DNA from: Candidatus Omnitrophota bacterium
Lineage (GTDB): Bacteria > Omnitrophota > Omnitrophia > Omnitrophales > Aquincolibacteriaceae
NCBI GenBank assembly: GCA_043821445.1
Contig: JBDRCT010000010.1
Span: 566-64,565 of the forward strand
Direction: 5' to 3'
DNA length: 64,000 bases
Positions 604-64,000 of this stretch are shown one piece after another. The number at the start of each line of letters is the position of its first letter. Position 1 is the stretch's first letter. The notes under the pieces are model-generated. The model was given only the letters and a program-made list of their open reading frames with translations. It did no database searches and was not told the DNA's origin. Made by a program: the position numbers and the translations under genes.

Positions 604-2268
604 ATGAATAACAGATTCATGAAAATGACAACCCCTATCTGGCAAAAAATAGCCCCCGTGCTATTGGGTTTGATTTTATCTCTCGCGCTTCTTGAGGCAG
701 GCCTGCGCTTAGGCGGGTTTATTTTTTCTTCAATACAAGCGTACGAAAATTTTCAATCCACAAAACAAAAAGGTACCTATCGTATTCTTTGTCTTGGGGA
801 GTCGACCACTCAAAGACAATACCCTCATCTTCTCGAGAAGGTCTTGAACCAGCGAAATATCGGAGTACGCTTCAGCGTTATCGATAAAGGGAGAGCAGTG
901 ATGAACACTATTACTCTGCTGGAGGGAATAGAATCTAATTTGGCTGAGTACCGTCCCGATATGGTGGTTGCGATGATGGGGATTAATGATCAAGGGACCA
1001 AATATTATCATACTATACCGAAGTCTGACACTTGGTTATTTAGGCACTGCCGAACCTATCGATTCGGTCGTATCCTCTTCATGCATATTTTAAAAAAGAT
1101 CAAACGAGAGGACATCGATGGATCCAACAAAGTAGATTCAAAAAGAAAAGCCCGGCCCAAAAATGCTGCGACTGTTTCTAAAAAAGCATATCTTTCGAAT
1201 GAAACATCCGTGAAGAAAGTTACCCAATTAAATTTGAAAGACGCAAAGGGAACCTACGGACCCCGAAGCCCTTCTCTAAGCCGTAGCGGGTTTGCTGAGA
1301 CTGAGGAATCCTTAAAGAAGGCCATTGAGCTTAATCCGGAAAACGATAAAGCCTATGTTGCATTAGGGTGGCTTTATCGAGATCAAAACAGATTAATCGA
1401 AGCCGAAGCCTCTCTCAAAAAAGCTATAGAGCTTAATCCTAAAAATGAGAATGCCCACGTAGATTTAGGGGGGCTTTATAAAAACCAGGGCAAATTCCAC
1501 CAAGCCGAGGATTGCTACAAGAAAGTCATCGAGATTAATCCTGGAAACGATAATACCTATGTTGAATTTGGGTGGCTTTATCGAGTTCAAGGAAACTTCA
1601 TCCTAGCTGAAGCCTTTTTTAGAAAAGCTCTAGAACTTAATCCTAAAAACGAGCATGCCTGCAATAGATTAGGATGGCTCTACTCCGATCAAGGCAAATT
1701 CGCTTTAGCAGAAGACTTCTACAAGAAAGCCGTCGCCCTTGATCCTAAGAACGACAATTCCTACTTTGCGTTAGGAGTGCTTTATCGGGATCATAGCCGA
1801 TTATCCCAGGCTGAAGATTCCTTCAGGAGGGCTTTCGAGATTAATCCTGACAACGAGCGTGCGCTTGGGGCCATGTCATCCTTGTACGAACAAATGGGTA
1901 AGCCCGAACTGGCAAAAGAATATGCCGAAAGGGCGAACGGGTTGAGATCAGAAGAGTGTTCTGCCGTTACAGTGAACAACTATCGAAAACTGAAAGATAT
2001 CCTGGACAGAAAAGGGATCAAACTTGTTTGCGTGCAGTATCCCGTGCGCAATGTGGAGCCACTCAAGAGAATCTTTGAGAAAGATAAAGGCGTTATCTTT
2101 GTCGATAATGAACGGGTATTCAAGGATGCGTTGAGAAAAGGAAGTTATAAAGAGTATTTTAAGGATATGTTTGCCGGTGACTTTGGCCATTGCACTCGAA
2201 AAGGCAATATGCTTTTAGCTCAAAATATCGCCGATGTGATCCTCAAGGAAGTCTTTAACAAGGAGTAA
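604..2268 (+). CDS. membrane-anchored SGNH/GDSL-family hydrolase with a TPR-repeat array inserted between catalytic blocks III and V (paralog 2)
   Basis: There is an N-terminal TM helix. Block I is LCLGESTT, block III is MMGINDQG, a K/S-rich linker follows, then about 8 TPR units (ALGWLYRDQ..AE..KKAIELNP), then block V GDFGHCTRKGNMLLAQNIADVI. Confidence 0.85.
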   Translation: MNNRFMKMTTPIWQKIAPVLLGLILSLALLEAGLRLGGFIFSSIQAYENFQSTKQKGTYRILCLGESTTQRQYPHLLEKVLNQRNIGVRFSVIDKGRAVMNTITLLEGIESNLAEYRPDMVVAMMGINDQGTKYYHTIPKSDTWLFRHCRTYRFGRILFMHILKKIKREDIDGSNKVDSKRKARPKNAATVSKKAYLSNETSVKKVTQLNLKDAKGTYGPRSPSLSRSGFAETEESLKKAIELNPENDKAYVALGWLYRDQNRLIEAEASLKKAIELNPKNENAHVDLGGLYKNQGKFHQAEDCYKKVIEINPGNDNTYVEFGWLYRVQGNFILAEAFFRKALELNPKNEHACNRLGWLYSDQGKFALAEDFYKKAVALDPKNDNSYFALGVLYRDHSRLSQAEDSFRRAFEINPDNERALGAMSSLYEQMGKPELAKEYAERANGLRSEECSAVTVNNYRKLKDILDRKGIKLVCVQYPVRNVEPLKRIFEKDKGVIFVDNERVFKDALRKGSYKEYFKDMFAGDFGHCTRKGNMLLAQNIADVILKEVFNKE

Positions 2269-2319
2269 GACCGGCGTCGTGCCGATGATCGTTCTACTTG
2301 CGGGTTTAATTTAGGGTAC

Positions 2320-4203
2320 ATGACAACATTTATGAATAAAGACGATTTTACACACGGGGTGGTCTCGATCTTCCGGAAAACGGTCATTGTTCTATCCAGC
2401 CTGATCTTATCTCTTGCGCTTCTTGAGGCAGGCCTGCGACTGGGCGGGTTTATTCTGTCCTCCATACAGGGGTCCGAGAATTTAAGATCCATCAAACAGA
2501 AAGGCGCTTATCGTATTCTCTGCTTGGGGGAGTCGACCACTGCGGGACAATATCCTCATCTTCTCGAGCAAGTCTTGAACCAGCGCAATACCGGGGTGCG
2601 GTTCAGCGTTATCGATAAAGGCAAGAGTGCTATAGACACCAATTTCCTACTCAATCGAGTCGAATCTTATTTGACCGAGTATCATCCCGATATGGTCGTT
2701 GCGATGATGGGAATGAATGATCAGGGTGTCAAATATTATGAAGACATACCGGAGTCTGATACCTGGTTATTTAGGCACTGCCGAACCTATCGATTCGGTC
2801 GGATCCTGTGCATGCACCTTTTAAAGAAACTCTTGGAAAAGGATGTCTACGGTTCAGACAGGGCAGATGGGAGGAGAAAGTCCAAGCTGAACGGCAAAGG
2901 GACGGCTATTGAAAAAGCAAATCTTTCGAATGGAACATCCAAAGAGAAAATGACTCGATCAGATTTGAATGACGCCAAGAGAACACCCGGACCCTCAAGC
3001 TCTTATCTAAACGGCGGCAGGATTTCCAAGACCGAGGAATCCTTCAAGAAAGCCATCGAGCTTGATCCTGAAAATGATAAGGCCTACGTTGAAATGGGGC
3101 AGCTTTATCGAGAGCGAGGCGAATTCCCCCAAGCCGAAGATTTCTTAGGGAAAGCCATTTTGCTTGATCCGGGAAACGATAAGGCCTACGCCGAATTAGA
3201 GAAACTTTATCGACTTCAAAGCAGAGTATTCCAGGCCGAAGACTTCTTTAAGAAAGCGATTGAGCTTGATCCTAAAAGCGCTAATGCCTATGTTGGATTA
3301 GGGAGATGTTACCTGCTTCAGGAAAAATTCTCCCTTGCCGAAGACTCCTTCGAGAAAACTATTGAGATTGATCCAAAAAACGCCAACGCCTATGTTGGAT
3401 TTGGGTGGCTTGATCGATTTCAAGACAAATTCCCCCAGGCTGAAGACTCCTTTAAGAAAGCGATTGAGCTTGATCCTGAAAACGCTAATGCCTATGTTGG
3501 ATTAGGGTGGCTTTATCGATTTCTAGACAAATCATCCCAGGCTGAAGCTTCTTTCAAAAAAGCTATCGAGCTTAATCCTGAATATGCTAGGGCCTACACG
3601 GAATTAGGGCAGCTTCATCAAGAGCGAGGCCAATTCCAACAAGCCGAAGACTTCTTCTGGGAAGCCATCAAGCTTGATCCTGAAAACCAGAATGCGTATC
3701 TTCCATTAGGGGGGCTTTATCGGCTTCAGGACAAATTCTCTGAGGCTGAGGATGTATTTAAGAAAGCCATCGCGATTAATCCTGAAAACGATCGCATACT
3801 TGGAGCGATGGCGCTGTTATGCAAGGAAATAGGCAAGCCCGAGCTGGCCAAAGAATATGCTAAAAAGGTAAATGAGCTGAGATCAGAGTATTATGCCCCG
3901 GTGACAGTCAATAACTATCGCAAGCTCAAGGAAATCCTGGATAAAAAAAGCATCCAACTGGTCTGCGTGCAGTATCCCGTGCGCAATGTGGAGCCACTCA
4001 AGAGAATCTTCGCGAAAGACAAAGGCGTTTTTTTCGTCGATAACGAGCGGGTATTCAAGGAAGCAATAAAGCAATCAGGTTATAATGAATATTTTAGAGA
4101 TATGTTCGGCGGTGACTTTGGCCATTGCACTCCAAAGGGTAATATGCTTTTAGCTCAAAATATCGCCGATATGATCCTAAGAGAGGTATTTAACAAGCGG
4201 TAA
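2320..4203 (+). CDS. membrane-anchored SGNH/GDSL-family hydrolase with inserted TPR array (paralog 3)
   Basis: Same architecture as 604..2268 (LCLGESTT, MMGMNDQG, TPR units, DFGHCTPKGNMLLAQNIADMI). The conserved ATG at 2332 (MNKDDF) may be the true start. Confidence 0.85.
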   Translation: MTTFMNKDDFTHGVVSIFRKTVIVLSSLILSLALLEAGLRLGGFILSSIQGSENLRSIKQKGAYRILCLGESTTAGQYPHLLEQVLNQRNTGVRFSVIDKGKSAIDTNFLLNRVESYLTEYHPDMVVAMMGMNDQGVKYYEDIPESDTWLFRHCRTYRFGRILCMHLLKKLLEKDVYGSDRADGRRKSKLNGKGTAIEKANLSNGTSKEKMTRSDLNDAKRTPGPSSSYLNGGRISKTEESFKKAIELDPENDKAYVEMGQLYRERGEFPQAEDFLGKAILLDPGNDKAYAELEKLYRLQSRVFQAEDFFKKAIELDPKSANAYVGLGRCYLLQEKFSLAEDSFEKTIEIDPKNANAYVGFGWLDRFQDKFPQAEDSFKKAIELDPENANAYVGLGWLYRFLDKSSQAEASFKKAIELNPEYARAYTELGQLHQERGQFQQAEDFFWEAIKLDPENQNAYLPLGGLYRLQDKFSEAEDVFKKAIAINPENDRILGAMALLCKEIGKPELAKEYAKKVNELRSEYYAPVTVNNYRKLKEILDKKSIQLVCVQYPVRNVEPLKRIFAKDKGVFFVDNERVFKEAIKQSGYNEYFRDMFGGDFGHCTPKGNMLLAQNIADMILREVFNKR

Positions 4204-4283
4204 GATTATCAGTATGCCGGCGGTCGCTCAGCCTGTGGGTTGAATTCAGGGTGCGGAAAAAATTATAGAAAAACTCCTTTAAA

Positions 4284-6131
4284 ATGACAATTTTGACTTG
4301 GCGGAAAACAACCGTAGGGTTCCTTAGGATAATTTTGTTTTTTGTGCTCTTGGAGATGGGATTGCGTTTTGGCGGGTTTGTCATGTTTTCGATACGAGAG
4401 TACGGAAATGTACAGTCCATAAAACAAAACGGCGCCTATCGCATTCTCTGCTTAGGAGAGTCCACCACCCGGGGACAATACCCTCATTTTCTCGAACAAA
4501 TCCTAAACCGGCGTAATGCCGGGGTGCGTTTCAACGTCATAGATAAAGGCAACGTCGCTGCAAACACCCTCTTTATATTAAATCAAATAGAATCTTATTT
4601 GGCCGAGTACCGTCCCGATATGGTCGTTGCAATGATGGGGAACAATGATGAGGGCATCAAATATTTCCAGGATATATCCGAGGCCGACACAGGGATCTTC
4701 CGGGATTGCCGGATCTATCGATTCGGCAGGATCCTCTATAGGTACCTTTTGCAGAAGATCAAGCGAGAGCACATCAATAAATCCAACAAAATGGATTCAA
4801 GTAGAAAAACCAAGTCAGAAGATGCGGGGAACGCTTCCAAAAGAGCAAATCTTTCGAATGAAACATCCGCAGAGAAAATAACAAAGTTAGATTTTAGGGG
4901 AAATGAAGCGAACCCCGGACCGAGAAGCTCTTATTTGAACCGCAGCAGGCTTCCTGAGGCCAAGAAATTGGCAGGGAAGGCCGCCGAGCTCCATCCGAAA
5001 AACGAAAATATTTATCTTAGATTAGGGGGGCTTTTTCGAGAGCAAGGCGAATTTCTCAAGGCCGAAAACTCTTTTAAGAAAGCCATCGAGATTGATCCTG
5101 AAAACGATGATGCCTGCATTGAATTGGGACGGCTTTATCTCGACCGTGGCAATTTATCACTAGCCGAAGATTCGTTTAAGAAAGCTATCGAGATTAATCC
5201 TGAAAGCAATAAGGCCTACGTGGATTTAGGGAGGCTTCATCGAGAGCAAGGTGAATTCCCCCGAGCCGAAGATTTATTCAAGAAAGCCATTGAGATTAAT
5301 CCTGAAAATGATGCGATCCGCGTGGATCTAGGGACGCTTTATCGCGATCAAGGGAAGTTTGTTCAAGCCGAAAATCTATTTAAGAAAGCTATCGAACTTA
5401 ATCCCCAAAATAATCACGCTTATGGCGAACTAGGAAGGCTTTATCAAATTCAATTTAAAAAATCCGAACTCGGAGACCTCTTTAAGAAAGCTATCGAGCT
5501 TAATCCGGAAAACGATTACGCCTACTTTGAATTAGGGTGCCTTTATAAAGAACAAAGGGAGTTCTTTCAAGCCGAAAACCTATTTACGAAAACCATTGAG
5601 CTTAATCCGGAAAATGATCTTGCCTACGCTGAATTGGGCCGGCTTTATCGAGAACAAGGCAAATTGCCTCAAGCCGAAGACATGTTTAAGAAAGCTATCG
5701 AACTTGATCCTAAAAATGAGCGCGTGCTTAGGGCCATGTCATCGTTATACGAAGAGACAGGCAAACCCGAACTAGCGAAAGAATATACTGAAAAGGCAAG
5801 CAGGTTGAGATCAGCGCGTTATGCTGCGATCACAGTTAATAACTTTCGAAAGCTGAAAAAAATCCTGGATAGAGAAGGGATCAAACTGGTTTGTGTGCAG
5901 TATCCTTTACGTAATGTGGAACCGTTAAAGAAAATATTCGAGAACGATAAGGGCGTTATCTTTGTAGATAATGAGAGCGTATTCAAGGAAGCACTGAAGA
6001 AAGATAGCTACAAAGAGTATTTTTGGGATATGTTCGCCGGTGACTTCGGCCATTGCACCCCCAAAGGCAATTTGCTTTTAGCTCAAAATATCGCCGATGT
6101 GATCCTTAAGGAAGTATTTAACAAGCAGTAA
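4284..6131 (+). CDS. membrane-anchored SGNH/GDSL-family hydrolase with inserted TPR array (paralog 4)
   Basis: Same architecture (LCLGESTT, MMGNNDEG, TPR units, GDFGHCTPKGNLLLAQNIADVI). Confidence 0.85.
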   Translation: MTILTWRKTTVGFLRIILFFVLLEMGLRFGGFVMFSIREYGNVQSIKQNGAYRILCLGESTTRGQYPHFLEQILNRRNAGVRFNVIDKGNVAANTLFILNQIESYLAEYRPDMVVAMMGNNDEGIKYFQDISEADTGIFRDCRIYRFGRILYRYLLQKIKREHINKSNKMDSSRKTKSEDAGNASKRANLSNETSAEKITKLDFRGNEANPGPRSSYLNRSRLPEAKKLAGKAAELHPKNENIYLRLGGLFREQGEFLKAENSFKKAIEIDPENDDACIELGRLYLDRGNLSLAEDSFKKAIEINPESNKAYVDLGRLHREQGEFPRAEDLFKKAIEINPENDAIRVDLGTLYRDQGKFVQAENLFKKAIELNPQNNHAYGELGRLYQIQFKKSELGDLFKKAIELNPENDYAYFELGCLYKEQREFFQAENLFTKTIELNPENDLAYAELGRLYREQGKLPQAEDMFKKAIELDPKNERVLRAMSSLYEETGKPELAKEYTEKASRLRSARYAAITVNNFRKLKKILDREGIKLVCVQYPLRNVEPLKKIFENDKGVIFVDNESVFKEALKKDSYKEYFWDMFAGDFGHCTPKGNLLLAQNIADVILKEVFNKQ

Positions 6132-6141
6132 GATCAGCAAC

Positions 6142-7902
6142 TTGCGGAGAGTCAAAAAAATGTCAAGGGGCGGTGTTCCTGGTGAGAAAATAAAAGAAGA
6201 TCGTCTCTCGTGGATTGCCTTGCTGTTGCTTTTTGCATTTCATGTCATCAATAACATGGTGATCATTTTTCAGGATTCGACGCCTTTCATAGCCGATGCT
6301 TCCGATTATTATAAAATTAGTTTTTTTTATTGGAAAGGATGGATGGATTTTATCAATAGTGGGGATTTTTATTTTCTCCATTCCATCCTACGCACGGGGA
6401 ACGGCGGACAACTCGCCGCCCTTCTGGCGATCCCTTTTTTCTCCGTCTTTGGCGTGAGCCATGATGTCGCTATTTTGGCGAACCAAGCGTTCTTCCTGAT
6501 CCTCCTGCTCAGTATATTCGGGCTAGGCAAGATCTTATGGGGTCGCACGACAGGACTCTTGGCGGCTTTTATAATCTCGTTCTATCTCGGAGTGGTTGGT
6601 TTTTCCAGGGTCTATATGCTGGAATTCCCTATCCTGGCGATCTCAACGGCGTGCGTGTATTTGCTGATCAAATCAGAGGGGTTCAAGAATTTCAAATATT
6701 CTTTGTGTTTCGGTTTTGTATTGGCCATGGGCGAGTTATTAAGACCCCGGTTCGTCGTTTATATTGTTGTCCCCGTCCTTTTTTATGTGATCAAGAACAT
6801 CGTCATTCTTTTAAGACGAACAGAGGTTTTGGCGTCAATCTCGGTAAAAAAGATAGCGATCAATATCCTTACTTCAGCCGTTCTTTCGTGCCTTATCCTC
6901 CTTCCGTGGTATCCCATGGACAAGATCTCCGAATACTTCAGGATCCAGATATTATGGTCAACATGGCCAGCTCTTTCAAAGATCGGTCCAACATTACCCC
7001 ACTATCTGCAGATGTTATGGGAGGTGAATTTGGGTTGGTTTTTTACGTTTCTATTTTTTCTGGGGCTGGCGATTTCTTTGTTCGAGAAAAACAAAAGACC
7101 CAAGATCTATTTTCTTCTCGTGTGGATTGCGCTTACATTGATTCTTGTTGCCATGTTTGGATTGAAAAATTTTTTCCGGCTCGAAATTCCTTTATTGGCT
7201 CCCATGGCCCTTATATCCGCTGCGGGGATGGAAGGGCTATCCAAACGGAAGATCGGCAAGTATCTCGTGGTTGCCTTTTTGATCTTGGGGATATTTCAAT
7301 ATTTTTTTATCTCTTATGGCAATCAGTTCGTTGATGGGAAAGAGGAACGCCAGCGTTTGGAGGAAATATCTTTGTCGCGAGGGTTGTTGCAAGCTGCGCG
7401 TCACGATTGGTCCCTGGATGAGCTCATGTCTACATTTGAAGAGCGCAGGAATTCAAATAAAGAATGGGACTGGCGATTTATAAATGCAAACCGTATCTAT
7501 CTGATGGGGGGGAGTTTTCGTCCATTGACAGACGATCTTATCAAAGTTTTAAATGCCGATCTTCGGGGTTCGCTTATTAACAATGAAATGGAAGAAAGGA
7601 TTCTCATCGGTGGGCTCCCCATCGTTGTTATGGGCTTGTATACAGACCAGTTCAACTGCAACATATTATTTTCGGATAAAGAGCTTCAACATATCGTACT
7701 TGGCGCGGATTATGTCATGAGATATAAAGCAAAGTGGCCTGAAGGGAGCTTTATTGATAAGATCCTTGATATTTTTGATGCCAATATCTCGCGATTTGAA
7801 AAGCTAAAGATCGTGGAGACACCCCGGGGTGAAATTTCGATCTACGGAAGGAAAAAAGAAGATGCGAGCGGCGGTCATCCCATGACAGGCGCCACTCTCT
7901 GA
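6142..7902 (+). CDS. polytopic membrane protein, GT-C-like glycosyltransferase candidate (ArnT/PMT-family-like)
   Basis: About 11-12 predicted TM helices fill the first ~390 aa. The first extracytoplasmic loop carries an acidic motif (FIADASDYY). A ~200 aa soluble C-terminal domain follows. The family assignment rests on topology and motif only. Confidence 0.45.
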   Translation: MRRVKKMSRGGVPGEKIKEDRLSWIALLLLFAFHVINNMVIIFQDSTPFIADASDYYKISFFYWKGWMDFINSGDFYFLHSILRTGNGGQLAALLAIPFFSVFGVSHDVAILANQAFFLILLLSIFGLGKILWGRTTGLLAAFIISFYLGVVGFSRVYMLEFPILAISTACVYLLIKSEGFKNFKYSLCFGFVLAMGELLRPRFVVYIVVPVLFYVIKNIVILLRRTEVLASISVKKIAINILTSAVLSCLILLPWYPMDKISEYFRIQILWSTWPALSKIGPTLPHYLQMLWEVNLGWFFTFLFFLGLAISLFEKNKRPKIYFLLVWIALTLILVAMFGLKNFFRLEIPLLAPMALISAAGMEGLSKRKIGKYLVVAFLILGIFQYFFISYGNQFVDGKEERQRLEEISLSRGLLQAARHDWSLDELMSTFEERRNSNKEWDWRFINANRIYLMGGSFRPLTDDLIKVLNADLRGSLINNEMEERILIGGLPIVVMGLYTDQFNCNILFSDKELQHIVLGADYVMRYKAKWPEGSFIDKILDIFDANISRFEKLKIVETPRGEISIYGRKKEDASGGHPMTGATL

Positions 7903-53778: not shown

Positions 53779-54651
53779 ATGATCCTCGCCTCACTCCTGA
53801 AGAAAGTCAGGAAGATCGAAATTCGCACGACCCGGCTGGTCAATGACCTCTTCGGAGGGGAGTACGAATCCGTCTTTAAAGGCCAGGGGATCGAGTTCGC
53901 GGACGTCCGGGAATACGTGCCGGGCGACGATATCCGGACGATCGATTGGAACGTCACGGCGCGTTCGCTCCATCCCTTCGTCAAAAAATTCGTCGAGACC
54001 CGCGAACTCACGGTGCTTTTCGCCGTCGACATGTCCGGCTCGCAATATTTCGGCTCCACGGACAAGCTCAAATCCGAGATCGCGGCCGAGATCACGGCTG
54101 TTCTCGCCTTTTCCGCCGTCAAGAATAACGACAAGACCGGACTCCTCATCGTCACCGAGGGCGTCGAGAAATTCATCCCGGTCAAGAAGGGGAGGAACCA
54201 TGCCCTCCGCGTCATCCGCGAAGTCCTCGGATATCAGCCCAAGAAAAAGAAAACCCAACTTGCCGGGGCCCTGGAGTATCTTTACCGGGTCCAGACACGG
54301 ACCTCGGTCATTTTCCTGATCTCGGACTTTATGGACGAAGGCTATGAAAAAGCTCTGAAGATCCTCAGCCGGAAACACGACGTGATCGCCATCCATCTCC
54401 ATGACCCGCTCGAGCAACAATTCCCGAAGGTCGGACTGGTGGAACTGGCGGACCGGGAAAGCGGGGAGACCTTGCTGGTCGATACGACTTCCTCCCAGTT
54501 CCAAAACCGGTTCCGCCAAACGGCCGACGCAAAACAGGCCGCCCTCGAAAAACTCTTCAAAAGCCTGCAGATCGATTGCATCGATATCCCGGCCAACACC
54601 TCCTATGTCGAGCCGCTTTTCAAATTCTTCAAGAGCAGGGAACGCAAATGA
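53779..54651 (+). CDS. DUF58-family protein (vWA-like, MoxR partner)
   Basis: The conserved N-terminal RGQGIEFADVREYVPGDDIRTIDW is present, with VFAVDMSGS and the typical position after moxR. Confidence 0.85.
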   Translation: MILASLLKKVRKIEIRTTRLVNDLFGGEYESVFKGQGIEFADVREYVPGDDIRTIDWNVTARSLHPFVKKFVETRELTVLFAVDMSGSQYFGSTDKLKSEIAAEITAVLAFSAVKNNDKTGLLIVTEGVEKFIPVKKGRNHALRVIREVLGYQPKKKKTQLAGALEYLYRVQTRTSVIFLISDFMDEGYEKALKILSRKHDVIAIHLHDPLEQQFPKVGLVELADRESGETLLVDTTSSQFQNRFRQTADAKQAALEKLFKSLQIDCIDIPANTSYVEPLFKFFKSRERK

Positions 54652-55601
54652 AAAAGAAGGCGTTCCTTTTCTTCGCGCTTCTCTCTGTCGCGGCTTCCTC
54701 CGGCCCGTGTCTTGCGGCCGGGGCCGATGACATTCGCGTCAAGGCCGAGGTTAACAAGGCGTTCCTCACGATCGGGGATCCGGTCACCTACACCGTCACG
54801 GTCGAACACGCCCCGGATATCAAGGTCCTTTCCAGTATCCCGGCACCTTCTTCGGATTTTCTTGAGATCAAAAAGGTCGAAGACATCGACAAAAAACAAA
54901 AGAAAAAGATCCTGACGGGCCGCAAATTCACCCTCACGTCCTACCGGCTCGGAGAATTCATCCTCGACCCCGTGACGATCAAGTACCAAAAGGACGGGCA
55001 GCCTGAGAAAAGCATTTTGACGAACAAACTCTACCTGACGGTCAAAAGCGTTTCGGGAGGGGACCCCCAGGAAGATATCCGCGACGTCAAAACCGTCGTT
55101 CCCTACAAACTGCGTATAGGAAAACTCCTCGCGGTGCTTCTCGTTCTCATGCTTCTTGTGGGCGGCTACTTCCTCTATCGCGCACTCCGCAAGAAAAAGG
55201 GCGCCTTTCAACCCGCGGTCACACCAATGACCCTCGAAGAGGAAGCCTTCATGCATCTCACGGAGCTTTTTGAATCCGATCTTCTCAAGCGCGGTTTTAT
55301 CAAGATGTATTATTTGCGCCTTTCCGAGATCTTGAGGACCTATTTCGAAAAACGTTACAAGATCCTTGCCGTGGAATCGACCACGATCGAGATCTTACGC
55401 GCCTTCCGTCCCCAGCATCTTGAGACCGGCCTTTATCAGAAGATCCAGTATGTCCTCGAAGCCGCGGATCTCGCAAAATTCGCCAAGTGGATCCCTGCGG
55501 CCCCTGAGATCCTCCAGATCAACAAGAAGGCCGAGGAGATCATCAAAGAGTCCGTTCCTGTCCCGGAGCCGGTTCCCGTCGAGGTGTCCCATGGTGTTTA
55601 G
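54648..55601 (+). CDS. BatD-like membrane protein (paralog of 51784..52650)
   Basis: It has a signal peptide, a periplasmic domain, a single TM (LLAVLLVLMLLVGGYF) and a cytoplasmic C-terminal domain. The ATGA start overlaps the DUF58 stop. Confidence 0.5.
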   Translation: MKKKAFLFFALLSVAASSGPCLAAGADDIRVKAEVNKAFLTIGDPVTYTVTVEHAPDIKVLSSIPAPSSDFLEIKKVEDIDKKQKKKILTGRKFTLTSYRLGEFILDPVTIKYQKDGQPEKSILTNKLYLTVKSVSGGDPQEDIRDVKTVVPYKLRIGKLLAVLLVLMLLVGGYFLYRALRKKKGAFQPAVTPMTLEEEAFMHLTELFESDLLKRGFIKMYYLRLSEILRTYFEKRYKILAVESTTIEILRAFRPQHLETGLYQKIQYVLEAADLAKFAKWIPAAPEILQINKKAEEIIKESVPVPEPVPVEVSHGV

Positions 55602-56571
55602 AGACCCGGCATTCTTCCTGCTTCTGCTTCTTCTGCCACTGATCTTTTGGGGGGCGAAACGGCGCGAAAGGATCGAATTCCCGTTCCCGTCCCTTGAACT
55701 TCTTAAGGGCCGGCCCGCAACACCGCGGATGTTCCTCTTCAAACTCCTGCCGCTCCTCAAGACCGTCATGTTCCTTTTTTTGATCGCCGCGCTGGCGCGT
55801 CCTTCCAGCGTTTCAAGCGACAAGGAATACCAGACCCTCGGCGTGGATATCATGATCGCGCTCGACATCTCGGGTTCCATGCTCGCCGAGGACTTCCAGC
55901 CTGAGAACCGTATCTATGTCGCCAAGCAGGAGGCCGTCAAGTTCATCCAAGGACGCGAGAACGACCGCATCGGGCTTGTGGTTTTCTCTAAGAAAGCGTT
56001 CACGCAATGTCCTCTTACCCTGGATTATCGCATCTTGACCGAATTGCTTTCCGAGATCCGGGTGGGGATGATCGCGGACGGTACCGCCATCGGCATGGGC
56101 CTCGCGACCGCGGTGAACCGTCTCCGGGACTCGAACGCCAAAAGCAAGGTCATTATCCTCATTACGGACGGCGAGAATAACGCCGGCAACATCGATCCGG
56201 TCACCGCCGCGGAGCTCGCCAAAAGTTTCGGCATCAAGGTCTACACGATCGCGGTCGGCAAGGGCGGCATGGTCCCGTTCCCGGTCGACGACCCGCTTTT
56301 CGGCAAGCGCTATGTCCAGGCCAACGTGGAGATCGACGAAACGACCCTGAAGCGCATCGCCGACATCACAGGCGGCCTTTTCTTCCGGGCCCGCGACCCC
56401 GCGTCGCTCTCTGAGATCTACGAGCGGATCAACAAACTGGAAAAAAGCGAGGTCAAGGTCAAGGAATACCGGAGTTATAACGAACTCTTTCCGTTGTTCC
56501 TCATCCCCGCGCTTTTCTTGCTCCTTTTCGAAATCATCTTGCGCCGAACCCTGCTCCTGAAGGTGCCCTGA
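55591..56571 (+). CDS. vWA-domain membrane protein, BatA-like
   Basis: An N-terminal TM is followed by a vWA MIDAS motif DISGSM and a C-terminal TM. The ATG at 55591 is used. Confidence 0.8.
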   Translation: MVFRDPAFFLLLLLLPLIFWGAKRRERIEFPFPSLELLKGRPATPRMFLFKLLPLLKTVMFLFLIAALARPSSVSSDKEYQTLGVDIMIALDISGSMLAEDFQPENRIYVAKQEAVKFIQGRENDRIGLVVFSKKAFTQCPLTLDYRILTELLSEIRVGMIADGTAIGMGLATAVNRLRDSNAKSKVIILITDGENNAGNIDPVTAAELAKSFGIKVYTIAVGKGGMVPFPVDDPLFGKRYVQANVEIDETTLKRIADITGGLFFRARDPASLSEIYERINKLEKSEVKVKEYRSYNELFPLFLIPALFLLLFEIILRRTLLLKVP

Positions 56572-59366: not shown

Positions 59367-59875
59367 CCCCAAATCACGCCAAGTTGCCCCGATCGAGCGA
59401 CTTTCTCTCCCTATAGGCTAGTTTACATAAGATACATTATGGGACGTACGTTAAGCTGGCCGAGGGATCCTTCTCTACAGCTCGCTGTGTTCTGAGCATG
59501 AAACTCTGCAGGAAAAACATATCGCACGGAATGCGGCGTTTAACTCCCAGGCAAAAGTTTTTCAATGTCCCAGCTTGTTTTCCCCGTTAGCGATAAAGCT
59601 GCGCGACACTTTGCAGTTACTTAGGGATTGCGCGGCACGCATACGCCATTTACGCGCGTACGCCTCTGGAAATGTAAGGGGCTCTTTCTCTCCTGTCTTG
59701 ACCCTAACCTAGAGAGGACTCCCCTATAGCGGAAATGACCCTTTTAAAGGGCCTATAGGAGGGGCTCTTCTATGGAATGGCCTATAAGGGACCCGATTTT
59801 GACCCAAACCGTCAAAATACCATGATTTTGCGCGGTTTTAGGCCATTCTTATGGGGAGTTTGTAGGAGAAGGTAT

Positions 59876-62800
59876 TTAGGCGGCGACGGCGACTTGCTGA
59901 CGGGCCACGATTTCGTCGATGAGGCGAGAAATAAGCGTGTTCGAGAGACAGGCCTCCATGGAGAAGAAGCGACCCTGCACGGCATCGGGCACCGCTTTCA
60001 TCATCGTCACGAACTCGCTCTTTCCTAGCCATGCCGCGATCTGACCTGTCCAGAAGAACTTCGGAGCATTCGTTCCGACATCCGCCTCGTTGTAGATAAA
60101 GACCGAGAACCCAGCTTTCACCAGTTCGTCAAGCACGCCTGAGAGCCGCTCGCCATCCTCGCGAAGCGCAGCATCGGACACCAGGATGGATCCGTGTTGT
60201 TTATTTGGGAAACGCAAAGCTTGAGATCTGAGGTCTTCCGGTGTCCCGGCATGCTTGAGCCCGCCAATGGCTCCAAAAGCCTTCGCATCCTTATAAATGA
60301 TAACTTCCGACTGGACCCGGTTCAGCAGAGTCTCGATCCCGCTGGCATCGACTGTGGCCATAATAATATTTTCCACAAGCTGGATCACATCGCGGCTTAC
60401 GGTCGGATTCGACTGCCGTCCTTCCTGAATGATTGCCAGGAGTGCGCGGATCTTTTCTTTTACAATACCCTCTTCCATCACCTCGACCGTCACAAGATAA
60501 GCCTGCATTTCGGCATCAAGACGGCGGGCTTCCTCCAGCATCTCCGCCGGCTGGAGGGTATGTACCACCTCATGGATCAGGATATCTTTCAATTCCTGGA
60601 CGGAGGACCGGTCAACGACTTCCTGGTTCAGAACGATCTCTTGTCTTCCCTCTGCTGTTTTTCTGGCAAATGCACTGCGGTTTCCAAGCAATTGCTTGTC
60701 GCGCTCTGTCGTGGCGACCCTCATCAGCACTCCTGTCTGAGGATCAAGACCCCTCATGAGCCCCGCGCGATCTAGCCCGTACAACTGCATATCCGTCAAT
60801 TGACTCACGATCCCCTGCGCCACCGTTCTCGCTTCAGCCATCTTTACATCATACCCCGGAACAACAGGCGTTGCCGTCACCGGCGCCACCAATGCCATTT
60901 CCAATCGCAATTCCGAGCGCTGGGCGGCGGGTTGTGCTGGACGAGCGCTGAATGCGGCATCACGGATCCGCTGCCAGAAAAGTCCCAGGATCGGCACGTT
61001 ATGCTCCACGAATTGCGCGAGGTCCTCTATTGAGATCTCATCTTTTCCTTTGTTTATCGGTGTAAGAGGTATGTGCGGAACATTCCTGATCCGAATGATT
61101 TGCATAGTTTTGTCCGGATCGTTCAGGTCAGAAACGCTGGCATAAACAGCATGCCGACCGCCAAATTGGTCACTTTCCACCAACAGCTGGGTTTGGGCAT
61201 CTTCATAGATCACGGCCGTTGGATTAATCGGCGGGTATCCCAAAGCGGCAGCCAACTTCATTACCGCATCGAGGATAAATTTATCCCCCAAGTCACCCGA
61301 CGCGAGCTGCTCCGGTGTCAGCCTTTCAATAAGAAGACCGGTAAACCACTTGAGCGCGCCTTCCTCATTTCCCGCATCACCACCCTCATTCAACTTGATC
61401 TTGCCGCTCAACGCTTGAGAAATCCGTTGATGCACATCTGCCATCAGTTTTGCAGCAGGAGAGTCTTCGGGGGTGACAGCCGCATCCTTCATCTCCCGTT
61501 GCATTTCGGCTTTCTTCGAATAGGCTTCCAAAAGAATCGATAGACTCGTGACCCAAGAGCGCATAAACCGGACGGCGGCCTCCTGGATCACAATTGGATC
61601 TTTAGACTTCGTGACCTCAAGAAGTTCCTTCAGCTCTTCTTCGGTTAGCACTTTCTCAGCACTTCCCGCTTTTTTCGGATCGAAATTTTCGTTGTATTTC
61701 GCGATGGCGATCTTATCCGCAAGGGCCTTATTGCCGGTGCGCACTGCTTCCAACCACTGGTAGAACCAGTTGAAAACGGGGGTCTGCGAAAAATAGGCGT
61801 CCTGTTTTCCAAAAACCGCGCGGTAGCTGTCGAGAAGTTCCGTGAGTTTCTTCGAGCGTGAAGCCGGGGTCAGAGCCTGTGTCTTTCCACCTGCCAGCGT
61901 CTCTTGCCCAGATTCCAGCTCTTGCTCCAGTTTGTCGATCTTCATCTTATTTTCGCTTCCGGCCGCAATACGCTGTTGCGGGGTCGTCGTATCCAAACTC
62001 ACAGCCTCATAGATCGCCATCTTGCGAACCAAAAGTTCAGACTCGTAAGCGCTCATGACTTTCAGCCCACGGAAAACAGTTTCGCGCTCAGTCCGTGGCA
62101 GCATTTTGACAAAGAGAGAGGAAAATTCTTCCGCAAAATAGTCGCGATAAGCCTGACCTTGCGCATCCGAGCCATCCTTCTTGATCCACGTCTTACCTTT
62201 TTTTAAGTCTGCCATCTCACGATCAATTCTCTTGGCATCTTCAGAACCATCACTTACCGTTTTTCTCTCCTTCTGTAATTTTTGAATGCGATGTTCGAAA
62301 TAAGGCAGCGCGAAATTGTTCAAATCACTCTCCATGGTTTCATGGTTGATATAAATGAAGATGTTAGCGTTCACTTCGGCCTCGCTATATCCCAGGGATT
62401 CCATCAAATTTACCTTCTCGACGAGCTGAGCCAAACTGAACTTCATTTTCGTGCCCGACATCATGGCCATTGTGTCCATGTCGGGGGCGATCTCAATGCG
62501 TTCAATCAACTTTTCTTGCGCTTCAATACCTGCCCGCATGCGTCCCTGCTCTTCAGGCGTCAGGACAGAAGCCTTTGTATCGAGCAGTCGTTTCGCTTTT
62601 GCGATGTTGTCTCTCATGATCTGCTTAATCCTCTTGGTGTCGACCACGGAGATCCCTTCGATCTTGTCGATGAATGCGTTCTTGAGCGCCGTGAGCTTGA
62701 GCGCATACACATAGCCATGAGCCCTGTTCTCCTGTTCCAGGGCTACCAGGAAGGGCTTTGCGCCTTCCGTATTCCCCGCTTTCAAAAGCGCGGTAGCCTC

Positions 62801-63973
62801 ATCAAAATTCTGCCGGAAAATCGAGAGCGGAAGCTGCTCCCCCGTAAAACCAATGTGGGCAGCAAAAACATCGCGCATTTCCGGCGAAAGCCACTCGAGC
62901 TCTTCTGCCATATTCCGGAACTGTTCAGCAGAGAGCATTTGCCCCGGATTGTTCGCCTGAAACTTTGCGACCCACAATTCGGCAAGAGCCAGATGCTTCA
63001 GTTCCTTCGTCAAAATATGACCGCCACGATTCAACGCCGCGGCAAGAAGCTTGTTGCTAATCGGGGACATTTCCGGATCGATCACGCGCAGGACCGCCCC
63101 CAGGGTTGCCATATCCCCGGCCGCATACCCGAATTTCGTCAAATTCTCCATGAGTTCCAGGATTGGAATGCCCTGCAGCCCCAGCTCGACTTTTTTGTCT
63201 TCCAGAAACCGCTGGAGTTTAAAGAATTTCAAGTCTTCTGCGTTCAATGTCGGGAGCGCGTCATCAAGCAAAGCCTGACGTTTTGTTAATATTCCTTCCA
63301 ACTCTTTCCGTTGTTCGACAAATTCCGCAGCGGGAGGACTCTTTTCCCCGCCCAGCGCCTTAATGAGTGCATCCAACTGGGCTTTTTGGAGTTTCAAGGC
63401 GGGGATAGTTCCCGGCTGAGCATCGATTAATTTCTGGAGACCAGATGGAACATCGCGCGGATGCAGGGCGATCATGCGGTCGATCGTTTTGAGAATTGCT
63501 TTGTCCCCTGTTTGTTCCTTGAACTGCAGGAGTTGTGCTTCCGCAACAGGTTCACGCAGAACAGGGTTTGCAACAAGCGCCAGCGCTCCTACTCCCGCAA
63601 GCACTTTTCCCGTGCCTGCAAGTAGGACGCCGACAGCACCAAGACCCGGTAGAAAAACAGCACAAACCACGCCGGTGACCAGTAAGCTCGCGGAAAGCCA
63701 TTTCGACTCCACGACTACCCGCAAAGCGGGACGCAACTTCGTATAGACCTTACCGATCAGAGAATCGGGGGCCTTAACTTCTTTGGCGGCAAGCCAACTG
63801 GCAGCCGTCTTCCGCCAGTGGCGGAACCCGAGTGATTCATTCCATGAATTTTTTGCAAGACGTTGATTTTCAGCAGCGGTTTGCGGCAAAAATTGAGCTG
63901 ATTGCTTGTCAAATGACTTGGCAAACTTGACGAACTGGGCAAAAGTAAGACGTTCGAGCTTATTCATGCCCAA
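59876..63973 (-). CDS. very large (>=1365 aa) membrane-anchored helical protein with a zincin-like HExxH motif (DUF4157-like) and a C-terminal alpha/beta domain of unknown function. The ORF may continue past the window edge.
   Basis: It is a single uninterrupted - strand ORF with a normal amino-acid composition. Two TM helices lie near residue 95-145. The zincin-like motif reads LIHEVVHTLQ...E..E. The antisense ORFs have aberrant composition. Confidence 0.8.
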   Translation of the reverse strand: MGMNKLERLTFAQFVKFAKSFDKQSAQFLPQTAAENQRLAKNSWNESLGFRHWRKTAASWLAAKEVKAPDSLIGKVYTKLRPALRVVVESKWLSASLLVTGVVCAVFLPGLGAVGVLLAGTGKVLAGVGALALVANPVLREPVAEAQLLQFKEQTGDKAILKTIDRMIALHPRDVPSGLQKLIDAQPGTIPALKLQKAQLDALIKALGGEKSPPAAEFVEQRKELEGILTKRQALLDDALPTLNAEDLKFFKLQRFLEDKKVELGLQGIPILELMENLTKFGYAAGDMATLGAVLRVIDPEMSPISNKLLAAALNRGGHILTKELKHLALAELWVAKFQANNPGQMLSAEQFRNMAEELEWLSPEMRDVFAAHIGFTGEQLPLSIFRQNFDEATALLKAGNTEGAKPFLVALEQENRAHGYVYALKLTALKNAFIDKIEGISVVDTKRIKQIMRDNIAKAKRLLDTKASVLTPEEQGRMRAGIEAQEKLIERIEIAPDMDTMAMMSGTKMKFSLAQLVEKVNLMESLGYSEAEVNANIFIYINHETMESDLNNFALPYFEHRIQKLQKERKTVSDGSEDAKRIDREMADLKKGKTWIKKDGSDAQGQAYRDYFAEEFSSLFVKMLPRTERETVFRGLKVMSAYESELLVRKMAIYEAVSLDTTTPQQRIAAGSENKMKIDKLEQELESGQETLAGGKTQALTPASRSKKLTELLDSYRAVFGKQDAYFSQTPVFNWFYQWLEAVRTGNKALADKIAIAKYNENFDPKKAGSAEKVLTEEELKELLEVTKSKDPIVIQEAAVRFMRSWVTSLSILLEAYSKKAEMQREMKDAAVTPEDSPAAKLMADVHQRISQALSGKIKLNEGGDAGNEEGALKWFTGLLIERLTPEQLASGDLGDKFILDAVMKLAAALGYPPINPTAVIYEDAQTQLLVESDQFGGRHAVYASVSDLNDPDKTMQIIRIRNVPHIPLTPINKGKDEISIEDLAQFVEHNVPILGLFWQRIRDAAFSARPAQPAAQRSELRLEMALVAPVTATPVVPGYDVKMAEARTVAQGIVSQLTDMQLYGLDRAGLMRGLDPQTGVLMRVATTERDKQLLGNRSAFARKTAEGRQEIVLNQEVVDRSSVQELKDILIHEVVHTLQPAEMLEEARRLDAEMQAYLVTVEVMEEGIVKEKIRALLAIIQEGRQSNPTVSRDVIQLVENIIMATVDASGIETLLNRVQSEVIIYKDAKAFGAIGGLKHAGTPEDLRSQALRFPNKQHGSILVSDAALREDGERLSGVLDELVKAGFSVFIYNEADVGTNAPKFFWTGQIAAWLGKSEFVTMMKAVPDAVQGRFFSMEACLSNTLISRLIDEIVARQQVAVAA

Positions 63974-64000
63974 GATACCGTCCTGCGCTAAAAGCGGTAT

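Follow-up and report, generated by a model that had tools for sequence, protein, structure and literature searches.

What kind of protein does the long minus-strand reading frame at the edge of a stretch of Omnitrophota DNA encode, and what might its conserved carboxy-terminal end do? The frame lies in contig JBDRCT010000010.1 of the Candidatus Omnitrophota assembly GCA_043821445.1, of which 64,000 nucleotides were analysed (positions 566 to 64,565, hereafter the window, numbered from its first letter). It proves to be the last part of a 5,235-residue protein, P0001 (MFH1799526.1), labelled at NCBI as a hypothetical protein of a Candidatus Omnitrophota metagenome-assembled genome. P0001 is a short member of the known class of Omnitrophota giant proteins, not a polymorphic toxin. 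On balance we lean towards its conserved end being a membrane-tethered metallopeptidase or processing tail. Omnitrophota giants are among the largest proteins known and are thought to mediate predation or episymbiosis; to our knowledge, almost nothing is known of their insertion, processing or regulation. The frame and its parts are listed here in the order in which they are read.

59876–64000, minus strand: the C-terminal 1,375 codons and the stop of a giant-class membrane protein (frame open to the window edge, identity with P0001)
63569–63700, minus strand: internal hydrophobic, hairpin-like segment, the last of the protein's membrane segments (Kyte–Doolittle scan)
62663–63661, minus strand: conserved helical module after the hairpin, P0001 residues 3975–4307 (40% identity to P0005; alignments of P0008 and P0018 also cover it)
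61514–62554, minus strand: conserved middle module, P0001 residues ~4344–4690 (alignment A5 and BLAST blocks against eight relatives)
60920–61513, minus strand: variable segment, P0001 residues 4691–4888 (relatives carry different inserts here)
60905–60919, minus strand: RSELR motif within a linker rich in Pro and Ala, where the conserved tail begins (motif conservation)
60473–60748, minus strand: zincin-like domain, three beta-strands and then the HExxH helix (alignment and AlphaFold2 model)
60308–60472, minus strand: helical spacer from the zincin-like to the alpha/beta domain (AlphaFold2 helices; residues 114–145 have a predicted local distance difference test score, pLDDT, below 50)
59879–60307, minus strand: C-terminal alpha/beta (flavodoxin-like) domain of about 143 residues (AlphaFold2 model and alignment)

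The frame is uninterrupted from position 64000 to a stop codon at 59876–59878. An earlier sequence-only reading had described a 1,365-residue protein with two N-terminal transmembrane helices, possibly running beyond the window. The extension is real: the window holds only the C-terminal 26% of P0001, and the giant gene continues for about 11.6 kb past the window end. In an exhaustive HMMER scan, P0001 residues 4036–5235 were 100% identical to the open reading frame (ORF) over the 1,200 residues queried. The peptide IPLLAQDGILGMNKLERL, translated upstream of the window's first Met, is also present in P0001, and that Met is P0001 residue 3873. Since the ORF is a fragment of P0001, the supposed N-terminal helices are internal: they correspond to a 44-residue hydrophobic stretch, WLSAS...ALALVA, at window residues 90–133 (P0001 3962–4005). 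The description as a 1,365-residue protein with N-terminal helices therefore fails.

Could so long a frame simply be an artefact, whether non-coding DNA, a pseudogene or an assembly chimera? Its codon usage fits that of the window's core genes less well (relative synonymous codon usage, RSCU, r = 0.53, against 0.64–0.95), and the 76,175-bp contig appears to end near the giant gene's 5′ end. Set against this are 4.1 kb without a stop and a G+C content by codon position of coding type (0.61, 0.38 and 0.58 at the first, second and third positions). There are also 15 protein relatives with collinear blocks and invariant motifs, and the same locus is present in independent assemblies. As judged from aligned sequences, the pattern of conservation refutes an artefact, to which we attach practically no credence.

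The relatives come from searching 1.84 billion cluster representatives exhaustively with HMMER at E ≤ 0.001; 15 of these match the ORF. All those with names are from Omnitrophota (P0001, P0003 and P0004 by their NCBI names; locus L002 as Candidatus Omnitrophica). They are mostly long, at 1,656–7,157 residues with cluster members of 4,213 and 4,941, and the rest are contig-end fragments. Back-translated scans of GTDB genomes and JGI metagenomes with the whole ORF found nothing, and a four-sequence alignment used as the scan seed gave two plus two loci. BLAST blocks shared with P0004, P0007, P0017 and P0018 are collinear and cover P0001 2461–3962, which includes the P-loop ATPase and the first hairpin, then 4118–4690 and 4880–5235. 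These comparisons show a common order of multi-transmembrane region, large P-loop ATPase region, hydrophobic hairpins, helical modules, variable insert and conserved tail.

They also show the family to be small and almost Pfam-dark, with members that are very long or lie directly behind ORFs of 7–19 thousand amino acids. The first 3,900 residues of P0001 are without a Pfam match; searches of the ORF against NCBIfam, PADLOC and PDB sequences gave no matches, and those in PHROGs were weak and to families with no known function. Self-BLAST found no internal repeats in P0001. Residues 1–970, outside the window, are beta-rich, with no signal peptide obvious by eye; they contain three loose units of about 125 residues (...AYQIQFNG[LI]VP..II.ALAG...) which self-BLAST at E < 1e-3 and Pfam miss. 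As a further observation, in each of the three relatives whose upstream side is known, the tail-bearing gene directly adjoins or overlaps another ORF read in the same direction. P0017 (4,213 residues) is preceded by a 19,359-residue ORF after a gap of 17 nt, P0009 (7,157 residues) overlaps the end of a 7,410-residue ORF by 23 nt, and the P0018 tail gene follows an ORF of at least 822 residues with a 4-nt gap. Such pairs could be tandem giant genes, or a single larger gene interrupted by a frameshift or broken up in gene calling.

A hydropathy scan finds at least nine hydrophobic segments in P0001, distributed over a multi-transmembrane block at 973–1430, a hairpin at 3750–3792 and the last stretch at 3960–4005, whose N-terminal flank holds five Lys/Arg and one Asp/Glu. 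The ATPase region has an invariant T-G-x-G-K in alignment A2 (GTGxGK[TS] in four of the five sequences, ATGIGKS in P0001), together with an invariant D-E-x-Q, as DEAQ or DEVQ, and GRDRSN. Its AlphaFold2 model is poor (pLDDT 49). In a Foldseek search this poor model matched Rad54/SNF2 (E 1.1e-3) and E. coli SecA (E 1.4e-3, probability 0.99), a hint that the region may be a motor resembling superfamily 2 (SF2) helicases or SecA. Relative P0003, which ends in the same tail, does match the Pfam SecA P-loop and preprotein-binding families. The tail and the ATPase probably both face the cytoplasm, because the two hydrophobic stretches put them on one side whether they are counted as 2+2 or as 1+1 spans. 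Among published classes of Omnitrophota giants, the available portions of the reports describe one that is rich in transmembrane segments and carries divergent SecA DEAD domains (West-Roberts et al. 2023, 10.1101/2023.11.21.568195), and a 'TM-only, cytoplasmic-domain' architecture (Nielsen & Lui 2026, 10.64898/2026.06.07.730766). The architecture of P0001 and its relatives agrees with both descriptions.

All relatives that reach the C-terminus share a tail of about 350 residues. A motif of the type R[ST]E[LAMISQ][RLKH] occurs 330–440 residues from the C-terminus in every long-enough relative except P0003, whose sole copy is 240 residues from the end; the linker around it is rich in Pro, Ala and Thr, and in locus L001 it reads RAEVR. 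Among 12 non-redundant proteins RSE[LAMI]R, its strict form, was counted 13 times where shuffled sequences predict 0.1, and the relaxed linker pattern 20 times where they predict 1.5. The motif is conserved at the protein level, because its codons differ between loci; a role for RSELR as a DNA-level recombination site was rejected for the same reason.

Behind the linker, the ORF contains a single HExxH motif, HEVVH, at window residues 1132–1136 (60560–60574), where about 0.02 would be expected by chance from the protein's composition. The sequence-only reading had drawn attention to this motif and had made its conservation among homologues a test. The two histidines and the glutamate (H59, E60 and H63 of the alignment) are invariant in the 11–12 aligned sequences, which are 22–49% identical to the window sequence. 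The motif is preceded by a conserved strand segment, G-x-x-[AG]-[YF]-[YF]-[ND]-E...E-I-V-L-N. An AlphaFold2 model of the tail, built from an 11-sequence alignment, has a mean pLDDT of 73.5 and places the motif on a helix (residues 50–65) after strands at 8–11, 26–30 and 36–40, so that the HExxH is real, conserved and in a zincin-like context of beta-strands plus helix.

The alpha/beta domain that closes the protein is conserved in all relatives and modelled with block-mean pLDDT mostly of ~82–93, falling to 60–75 in a loop and at the extreme end. Its invariant residues are H185, at the start of a strand, A238, F246, G259 and the terminal A290, and its conserved segments are G-[FY]-x-V-F-V and Q-[LI]-A-A-W-L-G. 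The carboxy terminus, QQVAVAA at 59879–59899 (the protein ends ...EIVARQQVAVAA), follows the pattern [QR]-Q-V-x-V-[AS]-A, and all relatives, along with L001, stop there with no extension. A distinct C-terminal alpha/beta domain of about 140 residues had been proposed from the sequence, and it is indeed separate and of no recognizable family.

Attempts to place the tail in a known family gave little. The sole Pfam family near threshold is SprT-like (PF10263), which scores 20.8 bits with the full ORF and 23.3 bits with the isolated tail against a cut-off of 25.6, and which matches in only two of 11 members. No aligned member has, after the motif, the third His of the SprT pattern HExxHx5H. The resemblance to DUF4157 suggested by the sequence-only reading goes no further than the motif. 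The profile (PF13699) matches neither the ORF nor the 11 tail sequences at E ≤ 1, with the proviso that HMMER filters may hide matches above about E 0.1. The Q of HExxHxxQ is found in the window protein, P0009, P0004, P0010 and P0011 and is absent from the other seven aligned sequences. Foldseek with the tail model finds nothing in the PDB below E 0.1. Its best matches among the viral models of BFVD include weak ones to IrrE-N-like, SprT-like and metalloprotease proteins, at E 4.7e-3 to 0.6, one of them an IrrE N-terminal-like phage protein at E 0.064. The suggestion that the C-terminal domain is TIR- or SLOG-like found no support, the fold matches being generic flavodoxin-like, SIS and B12-binding proteins (E > 0.1) with neither TIR nor SLOG among them. 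PDB profile searches with the tail (alignment A1) and with the zincin part (A4) returned only chance-level matches. It is a fair statement that the tail comprises a family-specific zincin-like domain of unknown subfamily and an orphan flavodoxin-like domain.

The roughly 1000 residues between the hydrophobic stretch and this tail had been described as coiled-coil-like helix. As a featureless helix the description does not survive; at least two conserved modules lie within it. The middle module bears an invariant H-E-x-x-E (HETME, 62330–62344) and an invariant D..Q..RD..AE (GSDAQGQAYRDYFAEE, 62126–62173), the invariant columns of A5 being H71, E72, E75, D130, Q134, R137, D138, A141 and E142. 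Its strand-turn-HE context resembles that of the C-terminal zincin, and it may be a degenerate second zincin-like domain, judging from these sequence features. Aligned with hhalign, the two are in register at a non-significant score (E 0.031, probability 1.6%), for which reason we do not claim paralogy. A PDB profile search with the module gave only chance-level matches. In the variable segment that follows, no BLAST block covers the full length, and only P0002, P0008/P0018 and P0011 reach parts of it. The insert in P0009 is a Peptidase_M42 domain (23.5 bits) and that in P0004 a borderline GNAT domain (20.3 bits against a cut-off of 20.7). Additional HExxH motifs occur between the middle module and the RSELR linker in P0008/P0018, P0011 and P0012.

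At its chromosomal locus the giant gene converges on yqeY across a non-coding gap, which the sequence-only reading had put at 500 bp.

59367–59875, no strand: non-coding gap of 509 bp separating the giant gene from yqeY, which converges on it (the resemblance to the close relative L004 breaks down here)

The gap contains only mechanical ORFs of 57 and 64 residues, partly overlapping the giant gene's 3′ end, and no immunity-like gene lies downstream of the giant gene before yqeY. The order giant-gene tail, gap, convergent yqeY, batB, batA, unnamed ORF, DUF58, moxR, dnaK recurs in P0018/L002/L003 and in P0012/L004, so that at least three genomes share the position. In P0018/L002/L003 the flanking proteins share 66–82% identity, and the gap (L002 8458–10580) has an insertion of four small genes, among them those for an AbiEii/NTP_transf_5-type nucleotidyltransferase and a DUF5674 protein. 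In the close relative L004, the YqeY, BatB, BatA, ORF341 and DUF58 proteins are 83–94% identical, and the giant tail, where it can be aligned, is only ~31% identical. The DNA matches L004 at 83–89% identity as far as window position 59479; no DNA similarity is detectable within the giant gene. Within the gap a 141-nt patch (59708–59848) is 72% identical in L004; this patch also holds a 13-nt inverted repeat (59775–59787 and 59836–59848).

By these sequence comparisons, the giant gene is a hypervariable occupant of a conserved chromosomal slot and diverges far faster than its neighbours. Such a conserved slot and such hypervariability argue for a gene that stays in place by vertical descent and is subject to diversifying selection or allelic replacement. 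Reports on Omnitrophota of hypervariable loci and long branches agree with this pattern.

What, then, might the tail do? We propose that it would be a membrane-tethered zinc metallopeptidase facing the cytoplasm, as the ATPase would. This is the most economical explanation because the HExxH, including the catalytic Glu, is invariant, and we rate the chance that the tail is catalytically active as even, going by the conserved residues. The substrates of the predicted peptidase would be the giant protein of which it is part, or polypeptides in close association with that protein. Processing in cis is suggested because a variable enzymatic insert and then an enriched linker motif come at a fixed place before the zincin: the RSE[L]R linker would be the best candidate cleavage or recognition site, and a cut there would part the variable insert from the tail. 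The alpha/beta domain, with its invariant free C-terminus, might be a regulatory or docking element. In its fullest form, the idea is of a built-in maturation cassette in which a cis-acting metalloprotease cuts RSE[L]R linkers and frees the upstream module, with the C-terminus as a docking or turnover signal; this full scheme we consider distinctly improbable.

Several points weigh against a giant-class protein with a processing tail. At 5,235 residues, P0001 falls below both published length cut-offs for giants in the available portions of the reports, >30,000 residues (10.1101/2023.11.21.568195) and ≥10,000 residues (10.64898/2026.06.07.730766, a set of 5,761 proteins). Its own ATPase region has no Pfam or PDB-profile match, and an hhalign comparison with the SecA of P0003 was negative. 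The 44-residue stretch could form one span or two, and mixed spans (1+2 or 2+1) would make the tail extracytoplasmic. The zincin part is modelled with moderate confidence (block-mean pLDDT 64–84), no invariant Glu, Asp or His column downstream of HExxH offers a third zinc ligand, and no characterized peptidase was matched significantly, in sequence or in structure, by searches of the PDB and BFVD. P0019 (ENA, 1,859 residues), a 90%-cluster mate of P0010, has HEDTN for HEDTH, a loss of the second His that may be a sequencing error, a natural inactivated copy or a sign that the loss is tolerated. Cleavage in cis or near-cis at the RSE[L]R linker is pure inference, drawn by analogy, and we think it unlikely.

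Some of these points would also fit a tail that is no protease at all. The HExxH would then be a structural metal site or a relic, and the module a targeting, docking, secretion or degradation signal, possibly for a PDZ-type or ClpX-type reader of non-polar C-termini or for type I-like export. Every member ends at the same position in -[AS]A, and the alpha/beta domain, rather than the zincin, is the best modelled and most widely retained part; the unconserved third metal ligand and the HEDTN of P0019 point the same way. Tails of the ssrA type, which serve as degrons, end in LAA or VAA (...FAVAA in Caulobacter, for example), and the QQVAVAA end resembles such ClpXP/Tsp recognition tails. However, if H, E and H had neither a catalytic nor a metal-binding role, their invariance among sequences otherwise only 22–49% identical would be difficult to account for, and the catalytic Glu is kept along with both His. 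A constitutive degron on a protein of five thousand residues would be costly, and the multiple transmembrane segments oppose type I export. We hold a non-protease tail to be a less probable explanation, albeit one deserving serious attention.

A peptidase acting in trans has also to be considered. In FtsH (M41) a membrane-anchored ATPase is followed by an HExxH domain, and by analogy the membrane ATPase and the zincin of P0001 might together degrade other polypeptides, prey-derived or misassembled ones for instance. The order of transmembrane segments, P-loop ATPase and HExxH domain in one membrane protein would suit this, as would the SF2/SecA-like fold hints and the fusion of SecA domains to the same tail in P0003. 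Yet in P0001 the zincin lies ~1,800 residues beyond the ATPase, with two hydrophobic hairpins and several modules in between, and no similarity to M41 or AAA+ was found; nor are SF2 ATPases known to serve as unfoldase partners of proteases, which also counts against it. We find such a machine quite improbable. The sequence-only reading had instead suggested a surface- or effector-like or a polymorphic-toxin-like protein, its motif resembling the DUF4157 zincin at the head of polymorphic toxins and of cargo of extracellular contractile injection systems (eCIS) or type VI secretion systems (T6SS). The HExxHxxQ of the window protein, the extremely fast sequence turnover between close relatives and the differing enzymatic inserts just upstream of the tail (M42 peptidase, GNAT) fit that idea. 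The rest does not: DUF4157 has no match in 11 members and the Q is kept in ~5 of 12, there is neither an immunity-like ORF downstream nor a secretion-system gene among the 30 annotated neighbours, which are mostly of housekeeping type, nor a PADLOC match, chromosomal synteny is conserved, and the protein is polytopic in the membrane. The C-terminus, where the zincin lies, is moreover the most conserved part of the protein and not a variable toxin tip. The toxin idea is largely refuted and appears very improbable.

A processing tail would matter for the larger proteins of the phylum. If the tail is a processing protease, it would answer whether, and where, giant proteins are cut, a point on which West-Roberts et al. 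(10.1101/2023.11.21.568195), in the available part of the report, note that cleavage-point information is lacking. The maturation cassette, if correct, would be the first concrete cleavage-site hypothesis for Omnitrophota giants and would explain why the tail is retained while its surroundings are replaced between close relatives. If the tail is not a processing module, P0001 is simply another uncharacterized long protein of Omnitrophota. P0001 and its relatives look like a stripped-down, shared 'tail end' of giants, and the tail is small enough to express.

In the remainder of the window 30 genes were annotated, mostly housekeeping and all on the plus strand. They include dnaK, a moxR-DUF58-batA-batB aerotolerance-type operon, yqeY, smc, alaS, recG, recA, gap/pgk, fab, trp and his genes and a two-component pair; the non-housekeeping neighbours are three TPR proteins, a PMT_2-type glycosyltransferase and three ORFs without a Pfam match. 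The search for secretion-system genes covered these 30, the region upstream of the giant gene lying outside the window; West-Roberts et al. (2023) describe T2SS-like loci (type II secretion) located upstream of genes for giants. No tRNA, transfer-messenger RNA or Rfam family was found in the window. Every confidently annotated gene in 1–59366 is on the plus strand, the giant gene being the only large minus-strand gene, and the cumulative GC skew drops steadily across 52–64 kb. At 604–7902 lie three tandem paralogous TPR-repeat proteins (554, 627 and 615 residues) and the PMT_2-type glycosyltransferase; with a G+C content of 43–45% against 52–58% elsewhere in the window, and an RSCU r of 0.2–0.45, this may be a horizontally acquired or fast-evolving island. 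The mechanical BatA ORF (55366–56571, 401 residues, TTG start) overlaps the preceding ORF (54576–55601) by 236 nt, its Pfam BatA domain begins at residue 76, and its orthologue in L004 is 368 residues long; the true start is probably ~30 or more codons downstream.

How does this protein compare with known systems? Among minimal zincins of the SprT-like/Wss1 type (PF10263), the tail shares a short beta-strand segment before the HExxH helix and the weak BFVD matches; unlike them it lies below the gathering cut-off, lacks a third His six residues past the motif and sits in a membrane protein rather than in a DNA repair context. With the DUF4157 zincin (PF13699) the window protein and some relatives share HExxHxxQ after strand-turn-strand, but the tail has no profile match, its Q is not conserved, and its zincin is a constant domain at the C-terminus, where the DUF4157 domain precedes a variable toxin; no immunity gene lies downstream and no secretion gene is among the 30 annotated neighbours. 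ImmA/IrrE (M78) offers a similar layout of small zincin domain, helical linker and C-terminal alpha/beta sensor-like domain, but there is no significant sequence or structure match, and neither a helix-turn-helix nor a GAF domain was detected. FtsH shows the same domain logic as P0001 without homology, and the P0001 ATPase looks SF2/SecA-like, not AAA+. MARTX toxins, in which a built-in cysteine protease cuts the linkers between modules, share with our proposal only the logic of internal linker cutting; there is no homology, and the MARTX enzyme is not a metalloprotease.

The closest likeness is to the Omnitrophota giants of the 'Archaeovorin' type. P0001 belongs to the same phylum, has many transmembrane segments and no signal peptide obvious by eye, and carries a large, divergent P-loop ATPase region past its transmembrane block (bona fide SecA in P0003). 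It shares with them scant Pfam coverage and rapid divergence, and relatives are contiguous with ORFs of 7–19 thousand amino acids. It differs in lacking the glycosyl-transferase, hydrolase, HEAT and dockerin content that the available portions of the published descriptions give for the giants, and in that its own ATPase region has no SecA profile match. The sequence-only reading had not recognized the combination of domains, and rightly so: the combination, like the tail module, linker motif, fixed C-terminus and hypervariable yqeY/Bat slot, does not appear in the available portions of West-Roberts et al. (2023) or of Nielsen & Lui (2026), and these features would distinguish P0001 and its relatives within the class of giants to which they belong.

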